A stretch of DNA of 64,000 bases from Escherichia virus ESCO5. Taxonomy: Duplodnaviria > Heunggongvirae > Uroviricota > Caudoviricetes. The DNA lies in IMG/VR virus record IMGVR_UViG_2974610597_000001; one strand, given 5' to 3'. The position numbers and the translations under genes were made by a program. The notes under the pieces are model-generated. The model saw only the letters and a list, made by a program, of their open reading frames with translations, had not been told where the DNA came from and searched no databases. Positions 53,332 through 63,828 of this stretch are shown piece after piece (within the stretch, counting starts at the first letter, position 1; each line of letters starts with the position of its first letter).

Positions 53332-54540
53332 ATGAGTAAAGCTAAAAGTTGGGAAGAATATAAAGCAGAATGCGAGATCATAGCTCTCTCTAAAGGATAT
53401 AAAATTTTAGGCCATAAAGAATGGAAAGGGTGTGAGACTAAACTCCTGATAGAATGTCCTGTGCACGGTGTATGGGATACTTGTAAAATATCTAACTTTA
53501 AAAGTGGGAAGTCTTGCCCTTCTTGTGGTGAATTAACAAAAAGGGAGAAGAGAACGAAGAGCAGAGAGGACCAAGAGAAAGAGTGTGAAGAAGAAGCGTT
53601 AAAAAGAGGTTGGCGCTTCTTGGGTATCTACGGAGAATGGCTGAAAGCTAAAAAGACACGAGTAATCTTACGTTGTGATAGGGGTCACGAGTTTAACACA
53701 TCTACCATAGACAACTTTAAGAATAATAAACAAGGTTGTCCAGTTTGTCGTTTAGAGGATATAGGTAAACACAATAAGCTTTCAGACGATCAGCACATAC
53801 AAGATTTCATGAGTACGGGTGTGTTTCCCGAAGGCACTACCTTCACTAATACAGGGGAAAAAGCTGGGAGGAGCGAAATACTTTGGAGTGTATTTTGCCC
53901 TATCTGTGCTATAGATGAGTTTTCCAAAGCTGGGGTAGGAACGGGATATTTTATCGGTAGAGGTAGTTCATTAAAACAGGGTATGCGCCCTTGTCGTTGT
54001 TCTGCCAGTTACAAATATTCTGAAGAAGAGATGACATTTAGAGCAAAAAGTGACGTAGAACGTAGAGGGTACGTGTGGTTGGGGTGGATTGGGAAAGCTT
54101 CTATACTTGGGGATTTTGAATATGGTTGCAAGGATCATGGGAAACATGTGTGTAGTGCTAACAATTGGTTAAATAAGGGGTGTGGTTGCCCTGGTTGTGC
54201 AGGTATGAATCAACAACAAGCCTACATTAATTATATTTACGATGAGCAAGATATTATCTGTGCACTGAAGTTTGGTATTGCTAATAATAGTAATCGCCGT
54301 ATGAAAGAACAAAATAGTCGTAATGTGTTTACTATGAAACAGAGCCAAGTGTGGCACTTCCCTACTGTGAAGCAATGCAAAGATGCAGAAAAGCGTTGTA
54401 AGCGTGTCCTTCACACGGAAGCAGTGAGCAAATATTCTATGCCAGATGGCTACACAGAGACAGTGGAGTTATCTTGCATGGCATCAATACAAAATATTTA
54501 TAAACTTTATGGTGGAACATTACAGGAGGAAACATGTTAG
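53332..54540 (+). CDS. Cys/His-rich repeat protein (three zinc-binding modules) with possible T5orf172/GIY-YIG-like C-terminal domain
   Basis: 402 aa; three repeats of K(G/R)(Y/W)..LG...W.G......C..HG ... GCP.C; C-terminal YINYIYDEQDIICALKFGIANNSNRRMKEQ. Confidence 0.35.
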   Translation: MSKAKSWEEYKAECEIIALSKGYKILGHKEWKGCETKLLIECPVHGVWDTCKISNFKSGKSCPSCGELTKREKRTKSREDQEKECEEEALKRGWRFLGIYGEWLKAKKTRVILRCDRGHEFNTSTIDNFKNNKQGCPVCRLEDIGKHNKLSDDQHIQDFMSTGVFPEGTTFTNTGEKAGRSEILWSVFCPICAIDEFSKAGVGTGYFIGRGSSLKQGMRPCRCSASYKYSEEEMTFRAKSDVERRGYVWLGWIGKASILGDFEYGCKDHGKHVCSANNWLNKGCGCPGCAGMNQQQAYINYIYDEQDIICALKFGIANNSNRRMKEQNSRNVFTMKQSQVWHFPTVKQCKDAEKRCKRVLHTEAVSKYSMPDGYTETVELSCMASIQNIYKLYGGTLQEETC

Positions 54541-54912: not shown

Positions 54913-55092
54913 ATGGCACGTTTAGCAGACCATGAAATCTTTAAACCTATTCTGAACCACTATGATGAACTTAAGGCAGTGTTGGATTGTTATAGAGAGG
55001 ATGAAGAACGTTTGGAAGTGAATCTTAAGATAGTTCTGATGAAAGCTTTTCAAGACGGGCAAGCTGAAGTCTTAGGAGGCATGAAAAAATGA
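54913..55092 (+). CDS. Small hypothetical protein
   Basis: Start refined to ATG at 54913 after AAAGGAGAAA. Confidence 0.3.
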   Translation: MARLADHEIFKPILNHYDELKAVLDCYREDEERLEVNLKIVLMKAFQDGQAEVLGGMKK

Positions 55093-55631
55093 GAATAACT
55101 GATGAATATGTATTCTTCTTTTCACATAAAGATGTGTTTAGTAATTGGTATATTGCACCCTTTACAGAAACCGAACCAGGTTACAATCAGACATTTAATT
55201 GTGTCGAACAATACATGATGTGGCGTAAAGCTTTGCTTTTTAATGACCACAACACGGCACAGGCTATTCTGACTCATAGTTTGATACGGAAAGATGAGAA
55301 GATCCAAGCTTATTACAAACGTATGGGTAGGGCAGTGTCAGATTTTGATAACAACGTATGGGAAGAGAACCGTGAGCGTATTGTTATGCGAGGTTTATGC
55401 TTGAAATATGTACAGAATCCAGATTTGTATGCAGACTTACACCTTTACCAATACAAAACGTTTGTTGAAGCAAGTCCTTACGATAAGGTTTACGGTATTG
55501 GAATGGGAATGTATGAACCAGGGGTGCTAAATCCGGTCAACTGGAAAGGGCAAAATCTTTTAGGTAAATATCATAACAAACTGATCGAAATACTTTTCCC
55601 AGACAAAATACCGCAAAGACGATATTTGTGA
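55089..55631 (+). CDS. NADAR-domain (YbiA-like) protein
   Basis: 180 aa; FFFSHKDVFSNWYIAPF ... GYNQTFNCVEQYMMWRKALLFND and C-terminal NWKGQNLLGKYHNKLIEIL match conserved NADAR/DUF1768 blocks. Confidence 0.55.
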   Translation: MRITDEYVFFFSHKDVFSNWYIAPFTETEPGYNQTFNCVEQYMMWRKALLFNDHNTAQAILTHSLIRKDEKIQAYYKRMGRAVSDFDNNVWEENRERIVMRGLCLKYVQNPDLYADLHLYQYKTFVEASPYDKVYGIGMGMYEPGVLNPVNWKGQNLLGKYHNKLIEILFPDKIPQRRYL

Positions 55632-55686
55632 TATTTTAACTTTTTTCATTTTTAGAACAAAGGCGTCACTTTGTAGCACAGAAATA

Positions 55687-55722
55687 AGGCTCCTACAGCA
55701 CCGTAGAGAGCCTATTATTTTG
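55687..55722 (+). terminator. Rho-independent terminator ending the plus-strand operon
   Basis: Hairpin AGGCTCCTACAGCACCGTAGAGAGCCT followed by ATTATTTTG. Confidence 0.45.
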
Positions 55723-55875
55723 TCCTATACAAACCCTTGTCTTTTTCAGTTTGCATCACTAGGATTCGATCTGAGTGGGTTCCTGAAGGTCTGCCAATAA
55801 GATTAAAGGTTATCTCAAATTCCCACTACCTATTATCTCAAAAATCCCTCAAATTATTTAAACTTTTTAAGAATT

Positions 55876-56060
55876 TACAAAAGTGAAAGTTGAAAACCAA
55901 AATTTAAAGTTTAGGAAAATTATCTTAAAATGTCAGATACAAAACAAAACTCAAAAGTCAAGGAAAATTTTAAAAATTTTGCGCGCCCACAGTATTTAAA
56001 GTTTTTTTGCTTTTACAAAAATGAAAGTACAAAAGCAAAATTTAAAGTTTACAAAAATTT
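55876..56060. repeat. AT-rich direct repeats (about 45 bp, 2 full plus 1 partial copy)
   Basis: acaaaagtgaaagttgaaaaccaaaatttaaagtttaggaaaat (55876-) and acaaaaatgaaagtacaaaagcaaaatttaaagtttacaaaaat (56013-), with related partial copy around 55940. Confidence 0.7.
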
Positions 56061-56069
56061 ATGCAGATG

Positions 56070-56185
56070 GGAATGAGAAGAGTTCTCATATGGAAATGCA
56101 AATGATAATGATTCGCATTTAGGTTTATAAATGAGATTGATTCTTATTTGATAAGGTAAATGATAATCATTCTCATTTAGAGAAT
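56070..56185. repeat. Array of four about 29-bp tandem repeats, each carrying an imperfect palindrome AAATGAnA...TTCnCATTT (iteron/operator-like)
   Basis: Units begin near 56072, 56101, 56129, 56158: aatgagaagagttctcat / aatgataatgattcgcattt / aatgagattgattcttattt / aatgataatcattctcattt. Confidence 0.7.
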
Positions 56186-56436
56186 GACGCGCAGGGGCGG
56201 TGTTTGTCTCGCGCTCCCGTGTCCCCTCGCCATGTAATAAGAATAACAGATCCAGCCAGGAAAGCAAGCGATTATTTTATCTTTACATTTCTTTACAAAT
56301 ATATAGCGCCCAGCCTACCGGCGATCAACCTTCCAACCAGCGCCCTGGTATGTTAGCCCCGCCTTTACGCCGTGGGGGTGGCGCTTCCTCTTCTGTATGT
56401 AAAACAGTATAAGCCCGATCCCTGGGCTTGTCAAGA

Positions 56437-56703
56437 TTATTTTTTGTTTTCTTGCCAGGATAGGACACCTAACCAAAAATGCATATCGCCCCGCGCCCCT
56501 GGTGGGATCTTGCTTTCCCCGCCGCCACTGCAAGCCCATAAATAACCATCAGCGAACGGATCAAAGTTTTCTATTTCTTCCACCTTATGATCGCCCAGGT
56601 TGAGAACTGTTTCAACCTTTAAGCCCGTTGCGCTTGCTACCTGGTGCACCGTGCCGCCTTGCCAGCCTAATGAGTGCATAAGGTGTAATGTAGTATTCGT
56701 CAT
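56437..56703 (-). CDS. Hypothetical protein encoded in GC-rich island, opposite strand to flanking genes
   Basis: 88-aa ORF MTNTTLHLMHSLGWQGGTVHQVASATG...; ATG at 56703 preceded by AAAGAAAGGG; local GC clearly above phage average. Confidence 0.3.
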   Translation of the reverse strand: MTNTTLHLMHSLGWQGGTVHQVASATGLKVETVLNLGDHKVEEIENFDPFADGYLWACSGGGESKIPPGARGDMHFWLGVLSWQENKK

Positions 56704-56811
56704 GGTGTCGCCCTTTCTTTGTTGTGCGCCCTGGTTGGCGCGGTAGAAAGATGATAGCCCTTTCTTTTATATATAGCAAGCAAAAAGAAAATAAAAAGAT
56801 TGAAAAAGTGA

Positions 56812-56870
56812 TTGACGTTCGCCAGGTGGCGGCATAATATTTACCACGTAGGGCGGCAATGGTGCCGCTC
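56812..56870 (+). promoter_or_regulatory. Promoter-hairpin cassette 1
   Basis: TTGACG - 17 nt - TAATAT, then TTACCACGTA and hairpin GGGCGGCA-ATGG-TGCCGCTC. Confidence 0.55.
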
Positions 56871-56889
56871 ATTATTTGGAGTTAAAATC

Positions 56890-57087
56890 ATGGCAACATT
56901 GCACATTGTGGCGAAAGCTGGACAAATAAACGTGGTAGTAAACGGTTTTACTGAGTTCAGTCATCCCCAGGATGATCATGAAACGGTTTTATCTTTCATT
57001 GATTCTCTGTTAGAAATGGGAGTCATTACAGAAGACCAGCACGCTACAAAATGCAAGCGCGTTAATCAAATTGCAGGGATAGAATAA
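56890..57087 (+). CDS. Small early-type protein
   Basis: Start refined to ATG 56890 (SD GGAG upstream); ORF-track start 56812 would lie within the promoter. Confidence 0.4.
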   Translation: MATLHIVAKAGQINVVVNGFTEFSHPQDDHETVLSFIDSLLEMGVITEDQHATKCKRVNQIAGIE

Positions 57088-57093
57088 AAAGTA

Positions 57094-57155
57094 TTGACAA
57101 CAAACAACAACCTGATAAGATGTATCACATAGGGCGGCGGAATGGTCCACCGCTC
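57094..57155 (+). promoter_or_regulatory. Promoter-hairpin cassette 2
   Basis: TTGACA - 16 nt - TAAGAT, then GTATCACATA and hairpin GGGCGGCGG...CCACCGCTC. Confidence 0.5.
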
Positions 57156-57178
57156 ACAACAGAAGAGAGATTATAATC

Positions 57179-57451
57179 ATGGCATCATATAGCGCAACAA
57201 TGATCGTAGCTGGCACCACTGGTAAACCTATGAGCGGTGGCGGATCTTTCGCAAATATCAACATTGACGGGCGTTTATCCCTGGACGCAGCGATCACCGT
57301 GGCGCGGGAAACATTTAAGAAAGAATGTAAATTCAATAAACAAGATTATCTCGGTTTTGCTATTGAAAAAACCGCGCGCTTTGTTGATTATAAAAGCCCG
57401 AAGATGGTTGATACTACACTAAAAGCGCAAGATGTAGCGTTTTTGCTTTAA
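57179..57451 (+). CDS. Small early-type protein
   Basis: 90-aa ORF after SD AGAGAGA. Confidence 0.4.
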   Translation: MASYSATMIVAGTTGKPMSGGGSFANINIDGRLSLDAAITVARETFKKECKFNKQDYLGFAIEKTARFVDYKSPKMVDTTLKAQDVAFLL

Positions 57452-57454
57452 GGC

Positions 57455-57510
57455 TTGACATTAACGAATAATTTGTTAATATGTTACATAAAGCGGGAAT
57501 AGTTCCCGCT
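57455..57510 (+). promoter_or_regulatory. Promoter-hairpin cassette 3
   Basis: TTGACA - 17 nt - TAATAT, hairpin AGCGGGAA-TAG-TTCCCGCT. Confidence 0.5.
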
Positions 57511-57527
57511 ATTTGTAAGGTGGTAGA

Positions 57528-57785
57528 ATGTTTTACATCAAATTAAAAGGTCACGTGATCGCGTTCAAAGATAACGCTTTTTACAGATTAGCAAAATATG
57601 CGTTAATACATCCCCACTATGTTTATATAAGGGGGCGTGATGAAATAAATATCTTTGATCAAACAACATGCGAGAACATCGAGATCCGCAAGGTTGGCGT
57701 ACGTGATTATCGTACATCTTTCTACCCTTGCAAGGATTCAGCAAGTCTTTTTAAAGTATGCCAATTGTTGAAAAAAGGTGGTTAA
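57528..57785 (+). CDS. Small early-type protein
   Basis: 85-aa ORF after SD AAGGTGG. Confidence 0.4.
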   Translation: MFYIKLKGHVIAFKDNAFYRLAKYALIHPHYVYIRGRDEINIFDQTTCENIEIRKVGVRDYRTSFYPCKDSASLFKVCQLLKKGG

Positions 57786-57786
57786 T

Positions 57787-58344
57787 ATGGGCCGCGAATA
57801 TGTGATCCAGTCTTGGGTAAAACATGAAGCAGATGATCCGCGCATCATTCCCGATCATCTTATCGATGAATCCACGGGATATAGCGGTGAGCAAATAGGT
57901 AACAGATTAGCACGTAGTAACGGCAACGTAAAAGCGCGTTATGTGCGCCCTGGCTGGCTGGCAAATGGTAACGCTGATTTATCCAGTGCGGAAGATGCGA
58001 GCGACGGCGCGAAAGATAATCCTTTGTACAAAGTTGATCCGGCTTTTCGTGTCCTGGATGAATACCCCAGCAAGATAGCGGCGCTCGATCAGGCCCTGGA
58101 AAGTCAGCGCATCACCTGGACCGCTTACAACATGGCAAAAAACGTACTTGATGGTAAATTGATTCAAGCTGAAAGAAAATTAGCCAAAATTGCAGCCATA
58201 GCCCAGGAGGAAGACGAGGAGACAACGGAAGAGGAAGAGTACGAAGAGATCCCGCCGTTGTTGTGTGTTGATGCTTTTCCTGATTATCAGCCGACAGAGG
58301 AAGAAAAAAGGATCGCACTAGAAAACTTTGAAAATAGTCTTTGA
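57787..58344 (+). CDS. Hypothetical protein with acidic C-terminal region
   Basis: Start refined to ATG 57787 (SD AAGGTGG); Glu-rich stretch QEEDEETTEEEEYEE. Confidence 0.4.
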   Translation: MGREYVIQSWVKHEADDPRIIPDHLIDESTGYSGEQIGNRLARSNGNVKARYVRPGWLANGNADLSSAEDASDGAKDNPLYKVDPAFRVLDEYPSKIAALDQALESQRITWTAYNMAKNVLDGKLIQAERKLAKIAAIAQEEDEETTEEEEYEEIPPLLCVDAFPDYQPTEEEKRIALENFENSL

Positions 58345-58399
58345 CATATCGCCGCCACTGGCATAATATTTACCACGTAGGGCGGCAATGGTGCCGCTC
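58341..58399 (+). promoter_or_regulatory. Promoter-hairpin cassette 4
   Basis: TTGACA - 17 nt - TAATAT + TTACCACGTA + GGGCGGCAATGGTGCCGCTC; near-identical to cassette 1. Confidence 0.55.
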
Positions 58400-58426
58400 A
58401 TAGTGAAATTATGCAAGAGGCTTACA

Positions 58427-58522
58427 ATGATTAATAAAGGAAATAGCTTGACGGTTGGAACGATTAACGCTATCATTCTCGCCGTTCCATTTTGGGTTGT
58501 AGTAGCGGCTATTATTTTCTAA
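58427..58522 (+). CDS. Small hydrophobic peptide (31 aa, missed by ORF track)
   Basis: Own cassette upstream, SD AGAGG; MINKGNSLTVGTINAIILAVPFWVVVAAIIF. Confidence 0.35.
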   Translation: MINKGNSLTVGTINAIILAVPFWVVVAAIIF

Positions 58523-58531
58523 AAAATATTC

Positions 58532-58591
58532 TTGACAACGTTTTTTAATCTGATAAGATGTATCACATAGGGCGGCGGAATACTTCCCCGC
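58532..58591 (+). promoter_or_regulatory. Promoter-hairpin cassette 5
   Basis: TTGACA - 16 nt - TAAGAT + GTATCACATA + GGGCGGCGGAATACTTCCCCGCC; spacer near-identical to cassette 2. Confidence 0.5.
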
Positions 58592-58613
58592 CAAAACAAA
58601 AAAGGGTAACACA

Positions 58614-58976
58614 ATGAGCAAGCAAATCAATACTATCATGTTAAACCTGGTATCCTTCCGCGATGATATGAAAAATTTACCACGTGAAACGGTTGATATT
58701 CATGTTTCAGCTTATCGCGCCCTTATTGACATGTTACCGCTAAAACGTGATCAACATGCCGCTAATATGATGCTTAATGCTATGCTTAAAAAAATGATTC
58801 AAACGGATCTCACTCTGGCGTATGAGTATCAAGGGCGCTTATATGCAACTTACAACAAGGCGGTACCTGGTCTGGGAAGTACCGAAGAGTTGCACGGCTT
58901 AAACCTGGATCAAAACACTTGGGATAGTATGCGCCGCGTTATGGTATGGGCCGAAAGCGGTAAAATTTACGAATAA
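58614..58976 (+). CDS. Small early-type protein
   Basis: 120-aa ORF after SD AAAGGG. Confidence 0.4.
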   Translation: MSKQINTIMLNLVSFRDDMKNLPRETVDIHVSAYRALIDMLPLKRDQHAANMMLNAMLKKMIQTDLTLAYEYQGRLYATYNKAVPGLGSTEELHGLNLDQNTWDSMRRVMVWAESGKIYE

Positions 58977-58982
58977 AAACGG

Positions 58983-59042
58983 TTGACACTGTTTAAAATT
59001 CTAGTATAGTTTACCACATAGGGCGGGAAGTGGTTTCCCGCC
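58983..59042 (+). promoter_or_regulatory. Promoter-hairpin cassette 6
   Basis: TTGACA - 17 nt - TATAGT + TTACCACATA + GGGCGGGAA-GTGGT-TTCCCGCC. Confidence 0.55.
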
Positions 59043-59064
59043 AACAATGAAAAAGGTTATCATC

Positions 59065-59430
59065 ATGGCTATTAATATTAATGTTTCCTCTTATGCTACC
59101 CTGGCTAACACGGCTAAAATTGAATTATCCAGCATTGAGGCGGTGCATATTAGCGCCCGTCGCTGGTTTCAACAGTCCTACGGTAACACATATTTTTCTT
59201 TAATGGTTGACGTTGAGATCGGCGGCAAACTGATTGAAGTGGTAAACGTGCCGTTCCAATATGGATACGGGGATCACTTTGACACTGTAGCAATGGAAGA
59301 ATTTAGCAAGGTTATTAATATGGAAGGTAAAGAGTTTTCACGCGGCGAGTATCTTTCCCGTTTTTGCCGTGACAATGGGATCACTGTATACAGTCATGCA
59401 AGCGATGTTAAACGTAAAAAAGATCTATAA
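59065..59430 (+). CDS. Small early-type protein
   Basis: Start set to ATG 59065 by analogy with 59851 gene (same AAAGGTTATCAT-ATGGCT context); ATG 59047 also possible. Confidence 0.4.
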   Translation: MAININVSSYATLANTAKIELSSIEAVHISARRWFQQSYGNTYFSLMVDVEIGGKLIEVVNVPFQYGYGDHFDTVAMEEFSKVINMEGKEFSRGEYLSRFCRDNGITVYSHASDVKRKKDL

Positions 59431-59436
59431 AAAGCA

Positions 59437-59496
59437 TTGACAGCACGAATAAAAAGAGTAAACTGTATTACATAGAGAGCGGGAACACTTCCCGCC
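59437..59496 (+). promoter_or_regulatory. Promoter-hairpin cassette 7
   Basis: TTGACA ... TAAACT/TATTAC, hairpin GAGCGGGAA-CAC-TTCCCGCC. Confidence 0.45.
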
Positions 59497-59519
59497 TCAC
59501 TGAAAAAGAGAGAAAAATC

Positions 59520-59759
59520 ATGGCTAAATCTAAAATTTACAACGGTCACAAAAACAAAACTCATTGGAATGTAAGCCTTTGGATCAACAACGATGAAGGT
59601 TTTTATAATCTTGCGCGTGAATTTATTGCAGCTAACACCAATAAGAATGACGCAGCGCGTGATATGATGTTATTTCTTGAAAGTATGGATCAAGATAAAA
59701 CGCCAGACGGTTACAAGTTCAGTAAAACTGCAATCCGTGCCGCTATGGTAGGAATGTAA
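59520..59759 (+). CDS. Small early-type protein
   Basis: 79-aa ORF after SD AAAGAGAGA. Confidence 0.4.
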   Translation: MAKSKIYNGHKNKTHWNVSLWINNDEGFYNLAREFIAANTNKNDAARDMMLFLESMDQDKTPDGYKFSKTAIRAAMVGM

Positions 59760-59768
59760 TAAAATAGC

Positions 59769-59829
59769 TTGACACTGATTTTTATTCTGGTATAGTTTAT
59801 CACATAGGGCGGGAAGTGGTTTCCCGCCA
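59769..59829 (+). promoter_or_regulatory. Promoter-hairpin cassette 8
   Basis: About 85 percent identical to cassette 6 over about 88 bp incl. GGGCGGGAAGTGGTTTCCCGCC. Confidence 0.55.
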
Positions 59830-59850
59830 AATCAAAGAAAGGTTATCATT

Positions 59851-60078
59851 ATGGCTATCGTTATTGTTCGCGTATCCGGCACGGTTGGAATCTCCCAGGT
59901 AGTAGCAGTTATCACCGAGAAGAAAGGGGATGATCTTCACTCTTCCTTGAATAGCTGGGCGGTCGCTAACTTCGGGCAATGGTCGAGCGTCGAGTACATC
60001 GAATCCTACCAGGTGCCGACGATTAGCCTAACCGATCTCAACGTTGATCGCTTGTTGTGCCTGGATGAATTAATCTGA
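59851..60078 (+). CDS. Small early-type protein
   Basis: 75-aa ORF. Confidence 0.4.
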   Translation: MAIVIVRVSGTVGISQVVAVITEKKGDDLHSSLNSWAVANFGQWSSVEYIESYQVPTISLTDLNVDRLLCLDELI

Positions 60079-60088
60079 AAAAAGATTA

Positions 60089-60146
60089 TTGACACCGGAA
60101 AGAAAAAGAGTAGAATATATTACATAGGGCGGCAATGGTGCCGCTC
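60089..60146 (+). promoter_or_regulatory. Promoter-hairpin cassette 9
   Basis: TTGACA - 17 nt - TAGAAT + hairpin GGGCGGCAATGGTGCCGCTC. Confidence 0.5.
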
Positions 60147-60167
60147 ACAACTAAAAGAGAAATCATC

Positions 60168-60362
60168 ATGGCGCTTAAAAAACTAACAAGCAATACTCGT
60201 TGGGATGAAATTGACGGGGAAGTATACATTTTCGCCCGTAAACCAGGTGATCAAAAATGGTCAAAGGCTTTTACTTGCCACCCTGCAACAATAGACCTGA
60301 TAAAAAGGGAAGGTTTACGTGAAGCGGTAGCAAGAAGTTTACTGATCCCTTATAAAAAATAG
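60168..60362 (+). CDS. Small early-type protein
   Basis: Start refined to ATG 60168 (SD AAAAGAGA). Confidence 0.4.
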   Translation: MALKKLTSNTRWDEIDGEVYIFARKPGDQKWSKAFTCHPATIDLIKREGLREAVARSLLIPYKK

Positions 60363-60363
60363 T

Positions 60364-60426
60364 TTGACAATATGCTGTTATCTGGTAAAGTGTACGACAT
60401 AGGGCGGGGCAATAAGGCAACGCCCA
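60364..60426 (+). promoter_or_regulatory. Promoter-hairpin cassette 10
   Basis: TTGACA - 17 nt - TAAAGT, hairpin GGGCGGGGCAATAAGGCAACGCCC. Confidence 0.45.
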
Positions 60427-60443
60427 TTAATGAGGGTAGAATC

Positions 60444-60548
60444 ATGTTAGAGAAAATTTTCACGGTTGTAATAGTTGGCCTGGCGTTATCGGTTGGATTG
60501 GTTGCAACTATGGCTAACATGATCCTATCTTCCCACGGTATTGGATAA
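60444..60548 (+). CDS. Small hydrophobic peptide (34 aa, missed by ORF track)
   Basis: SD GAGGGTAG then ATG 60444; MLEKIFTVVIVGLALSVGLVATMANMILSSHGIG. Confidence 0.35.
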   Translation: MLEKIFTVVIVGLALSVGLVATMANMILSSHGIG

Positions 60549-60558
60549 GGTGAATCAA

Positions 60559-60774
60559 ATGATCACGAATAAGACAGGTAAAACAGAATTTTTACGCGGC
60601 TTGCAAATAGGTAAACCTGAGATCTGGCATTGCACTAAATCCGCGCATAATGAAATGAAAGATTTTACCGCTACTTTACAACGTGTTAAAATATCTATCA
60701 CACAGAAAAAAGCCTTGTTAGTAGTAGAAAACGAGATCCCGCAAACTATTATTATTGTCGAGCGTACAGCATGA
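60559..60774 (+). CDS. Small early-type protein
   Basis: Start refined to ATG 60559 (SD TAAGGTGA); track start 60541 is a TTG codon. Confidence 0.35.
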   Translation: MITNKTGKTEFLRGLQIGKPEIWHCTKSAHNEMKDFTATLQRVKISITQKKALLVVENEIPQTIIIVERTA

Positions 60775-61157
60775 AAACAGAAATCATTATTGAAATCATC
60801 AACGGCTATAAAGAAGCCTTTATTTTTGCTGAATCAGCAAGGGATCATGAAGGTAATTTTATTGATAACTTAGACGATTATGATTTTTCTCCTAGCGCGG
60901 ACGAACGGATCGCCCAAGATGTAACAGCCTTTATTAATGCTAATCTTGCCGCTATCTCTGAGGCAATGAGCGACGGCGCAACAGCCAACCAGATCGGGAA
61001 TGATTTACATTTTACCCGTAACGGTCACGGCGTAGGCTTTTGGGATCGCCCTGAAATATACACCACTAACACGGCGAACCGCCTAACCAATGCAGCTAAG
61101 TTTATGCCGAACGTGTCGGCTTACATTGGTGAAGATAATTTGATTTATATTGAATAA
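60771..61157 (+). CDS. Hypothetical protein
   Basis: 128-aa ORF, ATGA overlap with previous gene. Confidence 0.4.
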   Translation: MKTEIIIEIINGYKEAFIFAESARDHEGNFIDNLDDYDFSPSADERIAQDVTAFINANLAAISEAMSDGATANQIGNDLHFTRNGHGVGFWDRPEIYTTNTANRLTNAAKFMPNVSAYIGEDNLIYIE

Positions 61158-61163
61158 AAAGTA

Positions 61164-61220
61164 TTGACACAGATCGCCAGTGTGCTAATATTTACCACGT
61201 AGGGCGGCAATGGTGCCGCC
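61164..61220 (+). promoter_or_regulatory. Promoter-hairpin cassette 11
   Basis: TTGACA - 17 nt - TAATAT + TTACCACGTA + GGGCGGCAATGGTGCCGCC. Confidence 0.55.
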
Positions 61221-61238
61221 GATAATGAGGAAAGTAAA

Positions 61239-61538
61239 ATGGAAACTATCGCTATTGTTACCGTAGAAAAACTGGTTGTTGGTGATGTATTCGCGTTAAT
61301 GGTGCCTAACAGCAGCAAGCTGGGCGCTTATGAAGTAATGGATCATAAAAATGAATCATTTGGCGACGGTTGCACAATGGCGGTAAAATCTTTAAAGGAT
61401 GGAATCATCCGCCAGGCTAACTGGCACAAAGGGAATCAAGTCGGTTTAATATCAGCTAATTTCTTGCCAGAAGAGCAAACGTTAGACCAACTATCAGGCG
61501 GTAAGACGTTAGCCGAACTACTGGAAACAGCGATCTAA
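61239..61538 (+). CDS. Small early-type protein
   Basis: 99-aa ORF after SD GAGGAAAG. Confidence 0.4.
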   Translation: METIAIVTVEKLVVGDVFALMVPNSSKLGAYEVMDHKNESFGDGCTMAVKSLKDGIIRQANWHKGNQVGLISANFLPEEQTLDQLSGGKTLAELLETAI

Positions 61539-61546
61539 TCAACAAA

Positions 61547-61562
61547 GGGGCGGCAACGCCCC
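61547..61562 (+). other. Promoter-less conserved GC hairpin (RNA structure or U-tract-less terminator)
   Basis: GGGGCGGCAACGCCCC perfect stem-loop right after stop codon. Confidence 0.4.
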
Positions 61563-61582
61563 ACATCAGAAAGGAAAAGATT

Positions 61583-61819
61583 ATGAGTATTGCAACAGTA
61601 TTAAACGCCGTTAAAACCGCTGAATCATCCGGCTTGCATGTTGAGCTTATAGATCAACCAGGTGGCGATCTCCTTGTCCAGGTTTACCCGCCGAAAGTAG
61701 GGGATGATTATTATTGGGCTTATTCTGATACGTTCGAACAAGTAGACACGAAAGCGATCACGGCTTTTATTTTAAAAACTATTGAAGAAAATAACTTTCA
61801 TCATAACATCAATCAATAA
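61583..61819 (+). CDS. Small early-type protein
   Basis: 78-aa ORF after SD AAAGGAAAAG. Confidence 0.4.
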   Translation: MSIATVLNAVKTAESSGLHVELIDQPGGDLLVQVYPPKVGDDYYWAYSDTFEQVDTKAITAFILKTIEENNFHHNINQ

Positions 61820-61828
61820 ACCATAAGC

Positions 61829-61844
61829 GGGGCGGTAACGCCCC
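61829..61844 (+). other. Promoter-less conserved GC hairpin, second copy
   Basis: GGGGCGGTAACGCCCC, one base different from 61547 copy. Confidence 0.4.
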
Positions 61845-61873
61845 ATTAAACGCAATAGGAAGAGGATAGACGC

Positions 61874-62164
61874 ATGAAAAAGATGATCGCAGTAGTTGCC
61901 CTGGTTGTTGGTATTAACGCGCCTGTACTGGCTAATGAGTTGCCAGAATCCATCACGCTAACCGATATCAACGCAATAAACCGGATCGGCGTTAATTATC
62001 GCCTATGCCTTGCCGCTAAAACTTTCCAGGACGGCACGACAGAATACCACGGATTCGAGGGTATCCGCTGCGGTGAGCTTGCACGCGACCTTAAGGAAGA
62101 TCCAGACCTTGAGGCCATACCGATGACCGTAAACGGTAAAGCTTACGTAAACCGCCAACAATGA
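61874..62164 (+). CDS. Secreted/periplasmic small protein
   Basis: 96 aa; signal peptide MKKMIAVVALVVGINAPVLA. Confidence 0.4.
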   Translation: MKKMIAVVALVVGINAPVLANELPESITLTDINAINRIGVNYRLCLAAKTFQDGTTEYHGFEGIRCGELARDLKEDPDLEAIPMTVNGKAYVNRQQ

Positions 62165-62295
62165 GAAAGGTAATCATCACAATGGGGATCGTAGTAGCAA
62201 CGCTGGCGCTTATCCCCTTCATGGTTGAACATGTGCTGATCAGTGTTGTCCTTGTAGTCAGTGACCTATTGGAAACGGTTGGCACCTGGTTTTAA
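62161..62295 (+). CDS. Small membrane peptide (44 aa, missed by ORF track)
   Basis: ATGA overlap with upstream stop; MRKVIITMGIVVATLALIPFMVEHVLISVVLVVSDLLETVGTWF. Confidence 0.35.
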   Translation: MRKVIITMGIVVATLALIPFMVEHVLISVVLVVSDLLETVGTWF

Positions 62296-62303
62296 GATAA
62301 TAA

Positions 62304-62331
62304 ATAGGGCTTGCAATAGTCCTATTTTTTG
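62304..62331 (+). terminator. Rho-independent terminator
   Basis: Hairpin TAGGGC-TTGCAATA-GTCCTA (one G-U pair) followed by TTTTTT. Confidence 0.5.
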
Positions 62332-62469
62332 TTATACTTATTGAACGGGCGGCACCTGGGAGCAGGGGAAGATAATCACCGGAAGACCCCGCTATATATT
62401 GATAACTAACGCCTATCAAACAACAAAACATCAAAGGAACAAACTATCAAATCTTTACAATTCTACCTA

Positions 62470-62528
62470 TTGACACCGGATCACGCTTACATTATTATTT
62501 ATCACGTAGGGCGGGAATGTTTCCCGCC
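62470..62528 (+). promoter_or_regulatory. Promoter-hairpin cassette 12
   Basis: TTGACA - 17 nt - TACATT/TATTAT + TTATCACGTA + GGGCGGGAATGTTTCCCGCC. Confidence 0.5.
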
Positions 62529-62546
62529 TGATTTAGGAGTCATATC

Positions 62547-62780
62547 ATGATCGAACAAATTAAAAGCACTAAACCAAATGTTAACGGTAATGTTTCTCAC
62601 TTTATCGGGGATAATGAAAGAGGTACACCGTACGCCGCCGTAACCGTTCAACCGAACGGGGATTATTGGTTTACCGTGTACGGATCTTACTCTTTTGGAC
62701 GTTCGGCACATGATAAGATCTTGCAAGTGGTTAAGCCTACTGGGAAGAATATCACAGCAGAAAAATTTTATAAAAAATAG
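62547..62780 (+). CDS. Small early-type protein
   Basis: 77-aa ORF after SD TAGGAG. Confidence 0.4.
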   Translation: MIEQIKSTKPNVNGNVSHFIGDNERGTPYAAVTVQPNGDYWFTVYGSYSFGRSAHDKILQVVKPTGKNITAEKFYKK

Positions 62781-62781
62781 C

Positions 62782-62842
62782 TTGCTTTATAGCTCCTGTT
62801 AACTTATAGTTATTGCGTAGGGCGAGCAATACAGCAAGCCCA
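62782..62842 (+). promoter_or_regulatory. Degenerate promoter-hairpin cassette 13
   Basis: TTGCTT ... TATAGT + TTATTGCGTA + GGGCGAGCAATACAGCAAGCCC. Confidence 0.35.
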
Positions 62843-62858
62843 CAAAGAGGAAAATAAA

Positions 62859-63227
62859 ATGAGCAAATCAGCAATTAAAGCACTTGAAAAAGCACAAGAA
62901 GTGATCGCAACGTCAACCACTGGCGCAAAGGTTAATCTCGTTTGTTATCTGACAGATGAAACTATCCGTAAAAATTGGCGTAATGCTGATTTACTGGCTT
63001 GCTTATTGATTAATAGTGTCGCTAATGCTTTCCAGTGTGAAACAGCCGAGAGCCTGGAGGAAAACTTGTTTGATAATATGGATCAAGCCATTGAAACCTA
63101 TATACAATCAAACCTGGATAGCTGGAACAGTAAAACATGGCCCGACAATTTACGCGATACAACTGATCAACTGATCCGCCTTGCCCTGATGGTTGAACGC
63201 GATAACGTTCACAACCGCACAAAGTAA
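62859..63227 (+). CDS. Hypothetical protein
   Basis: 122-aa ORF after SD AAAGAGGAAA. Confidence 0.4.
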   Translation: MSKSAIKALEKAQEVIATSTTGAKVNLVCYLTDETIRKNWRNADLLACLLINSVANAFQCETAESLEENLFDNMDQAIETYIQSNLDSWNSKTWPDNLRDTTDQLIRLALMVERDNVHNRTK

Positions 63228-63235
63228 GATTATAC

Positions 63236-63260
63236 AAGGGCGCACTAAGCGCCCTTTAAC
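63236..63260 (+). other. GC hairpin/weak terminator
   Basis: AAGGGCGCACTAAGCGCCCTT followed by TAACG; paralog of terminator at 63800. Confidence 0.35.
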
Positions 63261-63292
63261 GTAAAGAAATGTAAATAATGCGCTATCCCCTA

Positions 63293-63321
63293 TTGACAGG
63301 GGATCGGCGTTATATTATATT
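63293..63321 (+). promoter_or_regulatory. Sigma70-type promoter without downstream hairpin
   Basis: TTGACA - 17 nt - TATATT; -35 embedded in short palindrome CCCCTATTGACAGGGG. Confidence 0.4.
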
Positions 63322-63366
63322 TAACTCACTGGCAGCAAACAACGAAATGAAACAAAGGATAACAAC

Positions 63367-63786
63367 ATGAACATTAAATCAAATAATCCGGCTTACTCTT
63401 TCGATAATGCTTTTTGTCACGGGAGCGCCGCTAAAGGCTTCGAAATTGAGGGTAAGCTGGTTATTGTGAACGTTGACGGGGAAGAGGTTGCAGTATATCC
63501 GGCAAACGATGTTAAAAGCCGTCTACAATGCCGCATGGATGTTACCGCATATCAGCTTGATCCGATCCGTGTAGTTGCCCTGGTCCTGGAGGAAGAGATC
63601 AAAGCAATGCATCATAGCAATAAGTTTATTGGTGACGCGCAGGACAATATGAAAGTATGCCGCAGTAAAGTTAACGAAGCATTGAAAGAATACGGTTTTA
63701 AGGATCTGATGATTAAACGTGATGAAAAATTCCGCTTTCGTAATGACCTGGCGAACCGGATCTACTCAATCTATGAAGCGTTATAA
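63367..63786 (+). CDS. Hypothetical protein
   Basis: 139-aa ORF after SD AAAGGATAA. Confidence 0.4.
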   Translation: MNIKSNNPAYSFDNAFCHGSAAKGFEIEGKLVIVNVDGEEVAVYPANDVKSRLQCRMDVTAYQLDPIRVVALVLEEEIKAMHHSNKFIGDAQDNMKVCRSKVNEALKEYGFKDLMIKRDEKFRFRNDLANRIYSIYEAL

Positions 63787-63799
63787 TTGACAACAAAAC

Positions 63800-63828
63800 A
63801 AGGGCGCACCAAGCGCCCTTTCTTTTTG
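63800..63828 (+). terminator. Rho-independent terminator
   Basis: AGGGCGCACCAAGCGCCCT followed by TTCTTTTTG. Confidence 0.55.

Follow-up and report, generated by a model that had tools for sequence, protein, structure and literature searches.

The top GC peak in the stretch of DNA analyzed here, 64,000 nucleotides (64 kb) of the genome of Escherichia virus ESCO5 (referred to below as the window), is best explained, in our judgment and with moderate confidence, as two adjoining conserved functional units. One is a small minus-strand gene encoding a protein of 88 amino acids, and the other is a noncoding locus consisting of host-type promoters, a candidate structured RNA of approximately 95 nucleotides (RNA1), and a conserved leader. 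The island stands out because the remaining phage genome is AT rich (39% GC), and the early genes next to it are GC richer because their codon choice resembles that of the host.

RESULTS

Composition of the island and the early-gene array

The GC content of positions 56190 to 56800 was 0.488, compared to a mean of 0.394 across the window, in agreement with an earlier note on this DNA that had described the region as a GC-rich island within an AT-richer bulk. Among all 611-bp windows (standard deviation [SD], 0.027; maximum, 0.496 at position 56171) this was the top peak, and its level was reached by just 0.13% of them. On a finer scale, GC content was 0.48 to 0.53 across 56200 to 56700 and 0.26 to 0.30 in the adjoining AT-rich trough (55800 to 56200); by part, it was 0.62 in RNA1, 0.518 in 56190 to 56436, and 0.487 in the 88-amino-acid (88-aa) open reading frame (ORF). 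The same locus in the relative PVP-SE1 had a GC content of 0.50. Plus-strand GC skew was −0.18 to −0.23 over 56200 to 56600. tRNA or tmRNA genes were rejected as the source of the peak, since none was found in the 64-kb window. The sliding-window comparison also upheld the claim that the array at 56.8 to 63.8 kb is GC richer (0.421 at 56800 to 63800 versus 0.390 at 1 to 55000), and this early array was the highest 7-kb window (0.426; mean, 0.393; SD, 0.0115). A query spanning positions 55600 to 57200 matched ESCO5 with 100% identity. The features of the locus are listed in Table 1.

Table 1. Features identified in and around the GC-rich island of ESCO5
Feature	Position	Strand	Basis or remark
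Iteron AAASTTTAAAT, four copies within two 72-nt repeats	55856..56050	-	Repeat family D6
Four Fur-box-like palindromes, 29-bp spacing	56072-56180	.	Repeat family D5
Inverted repeat adjoining the palindromes, at the AT-rich edge of the island	to 56188 (element 56072..56189)	.	
RNA2, conserved GC-rich leader block after P2 (CAUrGCG...GAGACAAACACC...)	56190..56235	-	Conserved in several sequence types
P2, sigma70-type promoter TTGCTT-16-TATTCT	56240..56267	-	TTGCAA-17-TATATT in relatives
Tandem TGTAAAGA boxes (TTTGTAAAGAAATGTAAAGAT) directly upstream of the P2 −35 hexamer	56279..56299	-	Alignment of genera
RNA1, candidate structured RNA, ~95 nt	56301..56399	-	Covariance model R1
P1, near-consensus sigma70 promoter TTGACA-17-TATACT	56406..56434	-	11/12; A/T-rich upstream
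88-aa ORF (phrog_19316)	56437..56703	-	ORF list; phrog_19316, E = 1e-58
GC hairpin GCGCC-AACCAG-GGCGC near the 5' end of the 88-aa ORF leader	56726..56741	-	Read from sequence
Candidate sigma70 promoter of the 88-aa ORF, TTGCTA-17-TATCAT	56751..56779	-	Promoter scan, 9/12
First early-array promoter TTGACG-17-TAATAT with 5' leader hairpin (GGGCGGCAATGGTGCCGCTC)	56812..56870	+	Promoter scan; repeat families D1 and D2

A small minus-strand gene in an exchangeable slot

The minus-strand ORF to which the earlier note had drawn attention is present and is the sole minus-strand gene from about 49.7 kb to the end of the window. It is a real small gene, diverging from the early array and with a candidate promoter of its own. 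The ORF is under coding constraint (dN/dS, 0.07 to 0.32), and an AF2 model of the protein was confident (pLDDT, 94.3) and consisted of five helices. The family comprised 21 clusters with identities down to 41% and an invariant N terminus, and a profile search extended it to 209 clusters at 50% identity. Residues 19 to 36 form an invariant motif with a pattern resembling that of a helix-turn-helix (HTH), on which the putative assignment of an N-terminal HTH rests; the C terminus is variable. Fold and Pfam searches with the protein returned no informative or significant match.

The candidate promoter of the gene and the first promoter of the array are arranged back to back in a region conserved in relatives of the genera Justusliebigvirus and Phapecoctavirus (the latter being the genus of ESCO5), and the GC hairpin in the leader is identical in phi92, TSP7_1, and SF1-1. 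SF1-1 carries a 45%-identical variant of the ORF inside approximately 98%-identical flanks, and unrelated ORFs occupy the slot in Seunavirus phages; the ORF is a cassette exchanged among phages, with the slot filled by different small ORFs in related genera. The gene is truncated in the deposited annotation of ESCO5.

RNA1 directly follows a host-type promoter and is highly conserved

P1 lies directly after the stop of the 88-aa ORF, and its spacer is a GC hairpin (56411 to 56429) that is terminator-like with respect to this ORF. The −35 and −10 hexamers of P1 were kept in about 35 relatives despite sequence change in the spacer hairpin. RNA1 occupies +1 to about +95 of P1, and the covariance model identified one copy in the window (94.8 bits; E = 1.6e-33). 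RNA1 was likewise found once in each genome across 230 phage records of the Stephanstirmvirinae and Vequintavirinae, many of which are close relatives, so that independent events are far fewer than sequences, and it was found in 14 IMG/VR contigs. Among metagenome contigs there were 16 exact matches to the RNA1 pattern, 2 of the 16 by chance. Only 1 of 185,579 bacterial species contained the RNA1 core, on a 4-kb contig of a metagenome-assembled genome that is phage-like around the match.

Identity of RNA1 to its counterparts in phi92, Av-05, and Kp_phi1 was 0.89, 0.86, and 0.79, respectively, compared to 0.57, 0.41, and 0.53 for the AT-rich flank. Between ESCO5 and nepoznato, 41% of the synonymous sites of the ORF differed, whereas the RNA locus was 99.3% identical. 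Overall, RNA1 was 79 to 99% identical in phages with hosts ranging from Escherichia to Pectobacterium, with 52 invariant columns in an alignment of 26 sequences, whereas identities of neighboring proteins fell to 40%; this conservation next to drifting proteins makes RNA1 a strong candidate to serve an essential function early in infection. An arrangement in which the early array and a small ORF diverge, followed by about 0.8 kb that is gene free and then by a convergent gene, recurs in phi92, Av-05, and Klebsiella, Serratia, Cronobacter, Pectobacterium, and Salmonella phages. One relative (L016) has its protein gene on the opposite side, oriented divergently from the module, and P1, RNA1, P2, RNA2, and the boxes stay together; in Seunavirus phages the module is kept beside unrelated upstream ORFs. 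Positions 56190 to 56436 are noncoding and among the most conserved stretches of the phage lineage rather than a recent import.

The occurrence of 1-nt indels in the conserved core, together with loop-length variation, rules out coding in RNA1. Plus-strand ORFs at 56200 to 56412 and 56204 to 56356 were rejected as genes, being broken by indels or absent in relatives, as was a minus-strand ORF of 17 codons that is indel broken and missing from other sequence types; this 17-codon ORF of the RNA2 block is excluded by a 1-nt indel in Klebsiella phage phi1_175008. Searches of Rfam 15 (4,227 families) yielded no match above the gathering threshold in the 64 kb, none over 56190 to 56440 at an E value of ≤10, and none at an E value of ≤0.1 in seven related loci. 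A type III toxin-antitoxin RNA of the phiTE pseudo-ToxI kind was rejected: RNA1 is single copy and unrelated to tandem 36-nt repeats, and no similarity to ToxI was found in the window or in related loci, phiTE included. A riboswitch or cis-regulatory leader was also rejected, there being no minus-strand ORF after RNA1 before the convergent NADAR gene. Neither a terminator nor a ribosome-binding site was found after RNA1. As to the hallmarks of Hfq-type small RNAs (sRNAs), P1 is present (11/12) and no GC hairpin with a U-run follows RNA1 directly; the first terminator-like hairpin (56188 to 56166) is AU rich and overlaps the palindromes. Lacking an intrinsic terminator, RNA1 would be unusual for a free-standing sRNA.

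A second promoter, palindromes, and iterons downstream of RNA1

The hexamers and spacing of P2 are conserved and its spacer sequence is freely variable; in ESCO5 itself P2 fell under the scan threshold (8/12). The TGTAAAGA boxes upstream of P2 were nearly invariant across the aligned genera and were absent or altered in A73, Kp05F01, and ChuuTotoro; they are a candidate regulator or UP-like site or, alternatively, may belong to the 3' tail of RNA1. The start of RNA2 resembles the 5' leaders of early array genes. A stem-loop in RNA2 was rejected, as RNAalifold predicted nothing and a hand-built model was no better than shuffled controls.

Beyond RNA2, the palindromes contain the two sites of the window that come closest to the Fur box consensus tGATAATnATTATCa, at 56161 to 56175 (one mismatch) and 56103 to 56117 (two mismatches). 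The 19-mer AATGAkAATnATTmTCATT was kept, once, in 39 of the loci retrieved, some of which were duplicates from the same genome. The palindromes lie downstream of P2, and just one of them overlaps a promoter-like site, a weak one on the minus strand (56131..56102; 9/12). By sequence they are Fur-box-like, and they could instead serve a phage protein. The four iteron matches all fell within their tract, compared to 0.47 matches expected in 64 kb, and three to four copies occur at the same place in relatives. P1 and P2 point into this AT-rich, iteron-bearing region (56190 to 55740), and their transcripts would run into the iteron tract, which has a GC content of about 0.26 to 0.30.

This arrangement suggests another reading, which we consider unlikely though the best of the alternatives, in which the gene-free stretch of roughly 1 kb at 55.7 to 56.4 kb is a replication origin or control hub and RNA1 acts in cis. 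The T7 primary origin consists of two promoters and an AT-rich tract, and T4 oriF and oriG and ColE1 RNA II are likewise promoter primed. By analogy with the T7 and T4 origins, P1 and P2 would fire into an AT-rich unwinding region with iterons, and RNA1 would be the structured 5' portion of a transcript with a priming or activating role, similar to ColE1 RNA II, or an elongation element similar to put. Consistent with this, the tandem, co-oriented promoters face AT-rich repeats with no terminator after RNA1, the predicted transcripts would be G rich, and the downstream tract (26 to 30% GC) contains phased palindromes and four same-strand iterons that are unique in the 64 kb and conserved in relatives; moreover, the order of P1, RNA1, P2, RNA2, and boxes is kept even where the neighboring ORF was moved or replaced. 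However, the turn in cumulative GC skew lies near 50 kb rather than 56 kb, leaving the locus without a skew signal and the origin role putative. Nor are origins of the T7, T4, or ColE1 type known to contain a highly conserved compact RNA domain, and T7- and T4-type origins are not known to need a sequence-invariant structured RNA; the iterons vary between genera, whereas RNA1 does not. Finally, the relatives L017 and A73 have ORFs after P2 or a third promoter, which shows that promoters at this position can simply serve genes.

One hairpin of RNA1 covaries

The fold proposed for RNA1 comprises a CGCC/GGCG hairpin with a C-rich loop and a GGCG/CGCC helix around a bulged hairpin that covaries; a CCC:GGG pseudoknot is possible, and the junction AAGGUnrAUCGCCGG is invariant. 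In the covarying hairpin, 4 of the 9 pairs (45:67, 48:65, 50:63, and 53:60) change on both sides, with pair 45:67 being AU in 16 cases, GC in 14, and broken in none. Ninety percent of the alignment cells paired, compared to 26 to 46% when partners were slid. The covariation score and the count of cells changed on both sides exceeded those of all 500 shuffles, whereas the number of pairs with a change on both sides was not significant (49 of 500 shuffles); of four measures, two beat all 500 shuffles and two did not. Three other proposed helices never vary and are therefore neither supported nor refuted, and a closing stem (columns 2 to 8 with 88 to 94) was dropped because it was 72% paired. Folding energies of the 241-nt region and of six RNA1 homologues were ordinary (z scores, −1.8 to +1.2), and thermodynamic stability was dropped as evidence for structure. 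Counts of G·U versus A·C cells (5 versus 2) were not decisive for the strand of RNA1, which we infer to be the minus strand mainly from the orientation of the promoter.

Most RNA1 positions are invariant rather than covarying, the folding energy is unremarkable, the G·U and A·C counts leave the strand unfixed, and evident DNA sites (palindromes, iterons, and TGTAAAGA boxes) abound nearby, all of which would fit a double-stranded platform of about 95 bp, bound by a phage or host protein or used in packaging or recombination, with the hairpin being a cruciform or a coincidental palindrome. We regard this as very unlikely, given the exact placement of RNA1 at the predicted start of transcription from a conserved promoter and the behavior of the hairpin, in which pairing survives AU↔GC, AU↔UA, and CG↔GC swaps and loops of 4 to 8 nt; in the divergent homologue L017, the 3' half is kept and the hairpin is rebuilt with a GAAA loop. 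Such retention of pairing is typical of single-stranded folding and not of a duplex recognition site.

Codon usage of the early array and the question of host origin

The promoter-leader module at 56812..56870 is the first of about 14 up to 63.3 kb. Frequent GCG, CGC, and CCG codons had been reported for the genes of this array, and these were indeed 3 to 6 times enriched in relative synonymous codon usage (RSCU). GC content at third codon positions (GC3) was 0.408 in 16 array genes compared to 0.281, 0.308, and 0.347 in three other modules (P = 5.8e-7, Mann-Whitney test), a significant difference that upholds the compositional step; GC1 and GC2, compared per gene, did not differ between the array and the other modules. 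With an approximate E. coli codon table, RSCU correlated with that of E. coli at an r of 0.63 in the array and 0.11 to 0.15 in the other modules, and the per-gene log-likelihood shifted toward E. coli usage (P = 1.4e-5). PVP-SE1, a relative with 45% GC, showed no such step (GC3, 0.489 versus 0.490). These data support the view that the rise in GC3 is an effect separate from the island, namely, host-like synonymous codon usage in immediate-early genes. The shift of synonymous sites only fits translational selection better than import of foreign genes, and we read the host-like codons as probably reflecting selection on immediate-early genes that need the unmodified host translation machinery; slow amelioration of the array toward host composition may also be considered.

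The earlier note had attributed the composition to a different origin or history, through horizontal acquisition or amelioration toward a host. The distinct compositional regime stands, as does the resemblance to host codon usage in the array. A separate history also holds for the 88-aa ORF as a phage cassette, but not for the noncoding half, which is conserved in the 230 phage records and two subfamilies. Acquisition from the host was not supported: searches of 5,426 complete E. coli genomes gave no blastn match for the island and no megablast match for the array, and a host origin of either was rejected, the scan of bacterial genomes being essentially empty as well. The array proteins tested all belong to phage-only PHROG families, and host-derived DNA in the island is not supported by these searches. 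As a general explanation, we consider horizontal acquisition of island and array (for example, from a host chromosome) or amelioration very unlikely. The host-like codons of the array (r of 0.63 versus about 0.13; GC3 of 0.41 versus about 0.30), the exchange of the 88-aa ORF among phages, and the absence of a step in the GC-richer PVP-SE1, which indicates a lineage-specific state, are in its favor. It is weakened by the lack of DNA matches in E. coli and of RNA1 in bacteria (the one phage-like match apart), by the phage-only protein families, by a noncoding half that is ancestral to two subfamilies, by the equal GC1 and GC2 of the array and the rest, and by the presence of the phage's own early promoter module on each array gene.

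DISCUSSION

We favor an island made up of two functional units. The gene would encode a compact, HTH-like protein of five helices in a swappable slot. In the noncoding unit, P1, an early-class promoter recognized by host sigma70, would drive RNA1 leftward, so that RNA1 would be made early by host RNA polymerase as a functional structured RNA, with a predicted 3' end near +95. Acting in cis or in trans, RNA1 would work by binding a highly conserved partner, which could be a small ligand or a protein or complex of the host, and not mainly through base pairing. A second early-class promoter, P2, with its conserved leader, would complete the unit, both promoters pointing into the Fur-box-like palindromes and the iteron tract.

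A more far-reaching proposal, which we put forward tentatively and hold to be doubtful as a whole, is that RNA1 represents an undescribed RNA family that docks a host machine or senses a metabolite and that, together with the Fur-like boxes and iterons, it forms a control hub. The family would be restricted to large enterobacterial myophages of the phi92/phAPEC8/PVP-SE1/CR3 group and would be transcribed immediately upon infection from a host-type promoter. Its near invariance could stem from metabolite sensing or from docking to a machine that is conserved universally, such as the ribosome, RNA polymerase, or an RNase, and the hub might couple early transcription or origin firing to the iron or physiological state of the host.

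Several known systems resemble parts of the locus. The put RNAs of HK022 are promoter-proximal antiterminators that bind RNA polymerase and have a two-stem design. Like put, RNA1 is sequence constrained and putatively structured, directly follows an early promoter, and has no ORF of its own and more predicted transcribed sequence beyond it; unlike put, it has a proposed fold that is not two-stemmed and no known terminators to override, and there is no sequence similarity between the two. In T4-type large virulent phages, early genes are host-like in codon usage, and the ESCO5 array is similar in that only synonymous positions are shifted, toward E. coli usage; a link to phage tRNA supply would be conjectural, as the lack of tRNA genes refers to the 64-kb window. 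In AT-rich genomes, GC-rich intergenic regions have reportedly been used to locate structured RNAs (an approach credited to Klein and Eddy in 2002 and to the Breaker laboratory), and the RNA1 locus resembles these in being noncoding with a GC content of 0.52 to 0.62 in a 39% GC genome, conserved, and in possession of a covarying hairpin.

The 19-bp consensus of the Fur box is GATAATGATAATCATTATC. As with E. coli Fur sites, the palindromes are clustered and have one to two mismatches to tGATAATnATTATCa. In contrast to the clustering of Fur sites described for E. coli (PMC2189734), they are spaced by 29 bp instead of 3 or 6 bp, lie downstream of P2 and not over a promoter, and reside in a virulent phage.

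Early promoters of the form AAAA-N4-TGTTGAC-N17-TATAAT have been described for Certrevirus phages CB7, CR3, CR8, and CR9, members of the Vequintavirinae (PMC7344957). About 14 promoters of this type precede short ORFs in the array at 56.8 to 63.8 kb, and the class also includes P1 and probably P2, A/T-rich upstream part included. P1 and P2 differ from the array promoters of this type in having the opposite direction and in being followed by conserved noncoding sequence instead of an ORF. The conserved motif CACrTAGGGCGG of the predicted initial transcript and its hairpin are not named among the conserved elements in the passages covered from that paper (PMC7344957). No transcriptome study of these phages turned up in our literature search, which yielded nothing relevant on transcription, small RNAs, or Fur sites in the group beyond this promoter description.

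RNA1 is a possible new Rfam family, and the Fur-like boxes, if real, would mean that a virulent phage reads the iron status of its host, which would be unusual. The codon usage result offers a simple account of the compositional step without horizontal transfer. Phages of this group (phi92, phAPEC8, ESCO5, PVP-SE1, and relatives infecting Klebsiella and Cronobacter) have uses, actual or proposed, in therapy and biocontrol, yet most deposited genomes leave this control region of 1 kb empty or place spurious ORFs in it. In phAPEC8, a plus-strand ORF longer than those rejected here is annotated over RNA1.

The GC-rich island consists of one small gene and a conserved non-coding module

The 611-bp island at 56190-56800 is as GC rich as the earlier note had proposed, with a GC content of 0.488 versus 0.394 for the window, and it is the top peak among all windows of this size (z of ~3.5, a level reached by 0.13% of windows). 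The top 250-bp GC peak also falls within it (0.548 at 56306), and the deepest AT trough of the window (GC content of 0.26 to 0.30 at 55800-56200) adjoins it. The island holds the 88-amino-acid minus-strand open reading frame (ORF) that had been noted at 56437-56703, which is the sole leftward gene in that part of the genome, and a non-coding half (56190-56436); the GC content was 0.487 in the ORF, 0.518 in the non-coding half, and 0.62 in RNA1, the conserved block that follows the predicted promoter P1. A 1.6-kb query (55600-57200) matched ESCO5 (KX664695; Phapecoctavirus, Stephanstirmvirinae; ~149 kb, 39% GC) at 100%. In the related phage PVP-SE1, which has a genome of 45% GC, the GC content of the same locus was 0.50, barely above that of its genome. 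Constrained or structured non-coding elements show up as GC islands in AT-rich genomes. We attribute the GC content of the island to purifying selection, which fixes RNA1, the RNA2 block, the ORF, and the hairpins of the promoter spacer and leader, while the genome around them has drifted to 39% GC.

Features of the island and its surroundings (positions in the window)
Feature	Position	Strand or direction	Remarks
Tail-fibre genes	0-13.8 kb	rightward	
Replication and nucleotide-metabolism genes	13.9-49.6 kb	leftward	
Gene cluster	end at 55631	rightward	last member, NADAR-domain gene
Terminator of convergent NADAR gene			last element, past the iterons
Iteron AAASTTTAAAT	55856-56050	same strand	four copies within two 72-nt repeats 138 bp apart; AT-rich tract, 55740-56070
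Palindromes	56072-56189		four, 29-bp spacing, with adjoining inverted repeat; Fur-box-like, AATGAkAATnATTmTCATT
RNA2	56235-56190	-	conserved GC-rich leader block; begins CAUrG, as array-gene leaders do; conserved GAGACAAACACC segment
P2 (second predicted promoter)	56267-56240	-	hexamers and spacing conserved; spacer varies freely
Direct repeat TGTAAAGA-AA-TGTAAAGA	56299-56279	-	tandem; near-invariant across genera; immediately upstream of P2 -35
RNA1	56399-56301	-	95 to 100 nt from predicted start; extremely conserved
P1 (predicted promoter)	56434-56406	-	TTGACA-17-TATACT (11/12); A/T-rich upstream segment; directly past stop of 88-aa ORF
Putative promoter of 88-aa ORF	56779-56751	-	9/12; conserved in close genera
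Array of short ORFs	56.9 kb to window end	rightward	
Sigma70-type promoters, ~14	57094-63293	+	at least 10/12; ahead of short early ORFs

RNA1 is highly conserved and specific to phages

RNA1 had 52 invariant columns in 26 sequences from Phapecoctavirus, Justusliebigvirus, Avunavirus, Seunavirus, Certrevirus, and unclassified Klebsiella and Serratia phages. Identity between ESCO5 and phi92, Av-05, and a Klebsiella phage was 0.89, 0.86, and 0.79 in RNA1, respectively; the AT-rich tract 300 bp beyond it gave values of 0.57, 0.41, and 0.53. Between ESCO5 and nepoznato, 41% of the synonymous sites of the ORF differed, and the RNA locus was 99.3% identical. RNA1 cannot be translated, given the single-base indels in its C-run and its loops of differing length. 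The phAPEC8 annotation carries a plus-strand ORF across RNA1; the plus-strand ORFs at the same position in ESCO5 are broken by stops.

The core of RNA1 was found by blastn in 230 phage records, at one site each with the exception of one record, and was nearly always unannotated. Exact-pattern scans recovered 14 IMG/VR contigs and, in metagenomes, 16 exact matches, of which 2 (L048 and L055) were due to chance. A scan of 185,579 bacterial and archaeal species genomes gave a single match, on a 4-kb metagenome-assembled contig that is phage-like around the match. With a covariance model built from 30 sequences, the window gave a single match (56301-56395, 94.8 bits), and the IMG/VR contig L017 gave a divergent homologue (33 bits). 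None of the 4,227 Rfam families matched RNA1 in the ESCO5 locus or in seven relatives, and full-text searches on RNAs or transcription in this phage group gave no description of it; RNA1 would represent a new phage non-coding RNA family.

In the fold proposed by RNAalifold, RNA1 forms a hairpin whose stem is CGCC/GGCG and whose loop is C-rich, and a bulged hairpin is surrounded by a GGCG(G)/(U)CGCC helix; a possible CCC:GGG pseudoknot was added by hand. In the 30-sequence alignment, 90% of cells could pair, versus 26 to 46% when partners were slid by 1 to 3 columns. All 500 shuffles (500/500) scored lower for covariation and had fewer doubly changed cells than the alignment; the number of pairs with double changes was not significant (49/500 shuffles), and folding energies were ordinary (z of -1.8 to +1.2). 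Variation was confined to the enclosed hairpin, in which pair 45:67 was invariably A-U (16 sequences) or G-C (14 sequences), three further pairs had changes on both sides, and the upper stem and loop varied from 4 to 8 nt. In L017 this hairpin is rebuilt as CAUAGC-GAAA-GCAUG, and the invariant 3' junction AAGGUGGAUCGCCGGUAG is kept. The remaining helices are invariant and therefore neutral as to pairing. This evidence for structure is partial, which makes RNA1 a strong candidate RNA, short of demonstrated. The counts of G.U and A.C cells (5 versus 2) do not fix the strand. Given the covariation in the enclosed hairpin, we consider it very unlikely that RNA1 acts purely as a DNA-level site.

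A predicted early promoter precedes RNA1

P1 has the design of the ~14 promoters of the early-gene array and of the early promoter described for Certrevirus (PMC7344957); early promoter arrays are already known in this phage group. Across ~35 distinct relatives, the hexamers and spacing of P1 were constant, and the spacer, a GC hairpin in ESCO5 that also resembles a terminator of the 88-aa ORF, changed in sequence but remained a hairpin. We propose that host RNA polymerase would start at P1 early in infection, yielding RNA1, and that the near-invariance of RNA1 across phages of six host genera would reflect contact with a very conserved partner. On balance, we think it probable that RNA1 is such an early-made functional RNA.

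The main alternative is a cis-acting role, in which RNA1 would form a structured head to a transcript running from the tandem promoters into the iteron tract, in an origin or control hub of the T7, T4, or ColE1 type. No terminator follows RNA1, and the order P1-RNA1-P2-RNA2-palindromes was constant in the relatives examined, with the 88-aa gene present or absent; both observations favor this model. However, RNA1 is invariant whereas the iterons are variable, and a mapped origin is absent; we regard the model as rather unlikely.

The iteron has no further copy in the 64 kb (0.47 expected), and Stephanstirmvirinae relatives have 3 to 4 copies at the equivalent position; the tract looks like an origin or regulatory region. 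The window's two best matches to the Fur 7-1-7 motif tGATAATnATTATCa fall in the palindromes, and one copy of the 19-mer was kept in 39 of the loci retrieved, a count that includes duplicates of the same genome. The palindromes may be sites for host Fur or for a phage protein; a Fur-like array is unusual in a virulent phage, and these are candidate sites only. The tandem TGTAAAGA may be a regulator or UP-like site. A stem model for RNA2, the block following P2, performed no better than chance. The leader after P2 starts similarly to those of array genes. L017 (IMGVR_UViG_3300026472_000003) carries a divergent module at 1780-2260, in which RNA1 has a replaced 5' hairpin and retains its 3' half and the hairpin, here with a GAAA loop; an ORF follows P2 there in place of the palindromes, so P2 is able to serve a gene.

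The 88-aa gene occupies an exchangeable slot

The 88-aa ORF is a real gene. It belongs to phrog_19316 (E = 1e-58), has full-length relatives down to 41% identity in a family of 209 clusters (at 50% identity), and shows pairwise dN/dS values of 0.07 to 0.32; its 5' hairpin is conserved in close genera. Annotations around the island disagree, with a truncated ORF in ESCO5 and the 88-aa ORF in ASO2A. The AlphaFold model has five helices (pLDDT of 94.3), and the invariant residues lie mostly within residues 5 to 36, of which residues 19 to 36 would form a putative helix-turn-helix, as judged from their fit to the classical sequence pattern.

The gene is no fixed partner of the downstream module. 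Unrelated small ORFs occupy its slot in Seunavirus phages and Serratia phage ChuuTotoro, a homologue lies on the opposite side in reverse orientation in an IMG/VR contig (L016), and one Vibrio phage has the protein without the RNA element. Shigella phage SF1-1 (L008, 1501-1770) carries a 45%-identical allele between flanks that share ~97 to 100% identity with ESCO5; the downstream breakpoint lies at P1, which makes this a clean case of cassette exchange.

Early genes show host-like codon usage

No other 7 kb of the window is as GC rich as the array (0.42 to 0.43 versus a mean of 0.393; standard deviation, 0.0115), in agreement with the earlier note. With gene calls from the record, the 16 array genes had a GC3 of 0.408, compared with 0.281, 0.308, and 0.347 for the other modules (P = 5.8e-7). 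There was no difference in GC1 or GC2, and the shift lies wholly at third codon positions. Use of GCG, CGC, and CCG, which had been noted as frequent, was approximately 3- to 6-fold higher in the array. Relative synonymous codon usage correlated with that of E. coli at r = 0.63 for the array and 0.11 to 0.15 for the other three modules (approximate figures), and these three correlated with each other at 0.90 to 0.96. PVP-SE1 has no compositional step at the array.

A shift toward the host is upheld as host-like synonymous usage, a kind of effect already known for early genes. The simplest explanation would be that genes which must be translated first were selected to use host-matched codons; we prefer it to the amelioration that had been suggested and that may account for the composition. 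Recent import from a host is unsupported, as no part of the array matched any of 5,426 E. coli genomes and the phage's own promoter module is present at each array gene, and we consider host-derived DNA in island or array very unlikely. Downstream of nearly all of the ~14 array promoters, the transcribed part opens with the conserved sequence yAyCACrTAGGGCGGs, and the 5' leader contains a GC hairpin. This shared leader may act in stability, processing, or factor binding.

Record versions and neighboring genes

Compared with KX664695.3, the window has an extra 99-bp tandem copy in the gene for a TerC-like membrane protein (34936-35133) and has one copy fewer of a 55-bp repeat in the array (~61165-61219). 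The published genome size (149,312 bp; PMC5374246) exceeds that of the current record (149,268 bp) by exactly this net +44 bp, so the window represents an earlier record version; both differences, located at repeats, are probably assembly corrections. The "GTP cyclohydrolase II" of the ESCO5 record (55089-55631) is a NADAR-domain protein (Pfam PF08719, E = 1.8e-35), and its label looks to have been taken over from fused bacterial homologues. A 402-aa protein encoded just upstream of the control region (53332-54540) matches a CapR homology domain in three stretches and, weakly, T5orf172 (phrog_681, "endonuclease"); it is probably an endonuclease of the homing type or the product of a mobile gene.
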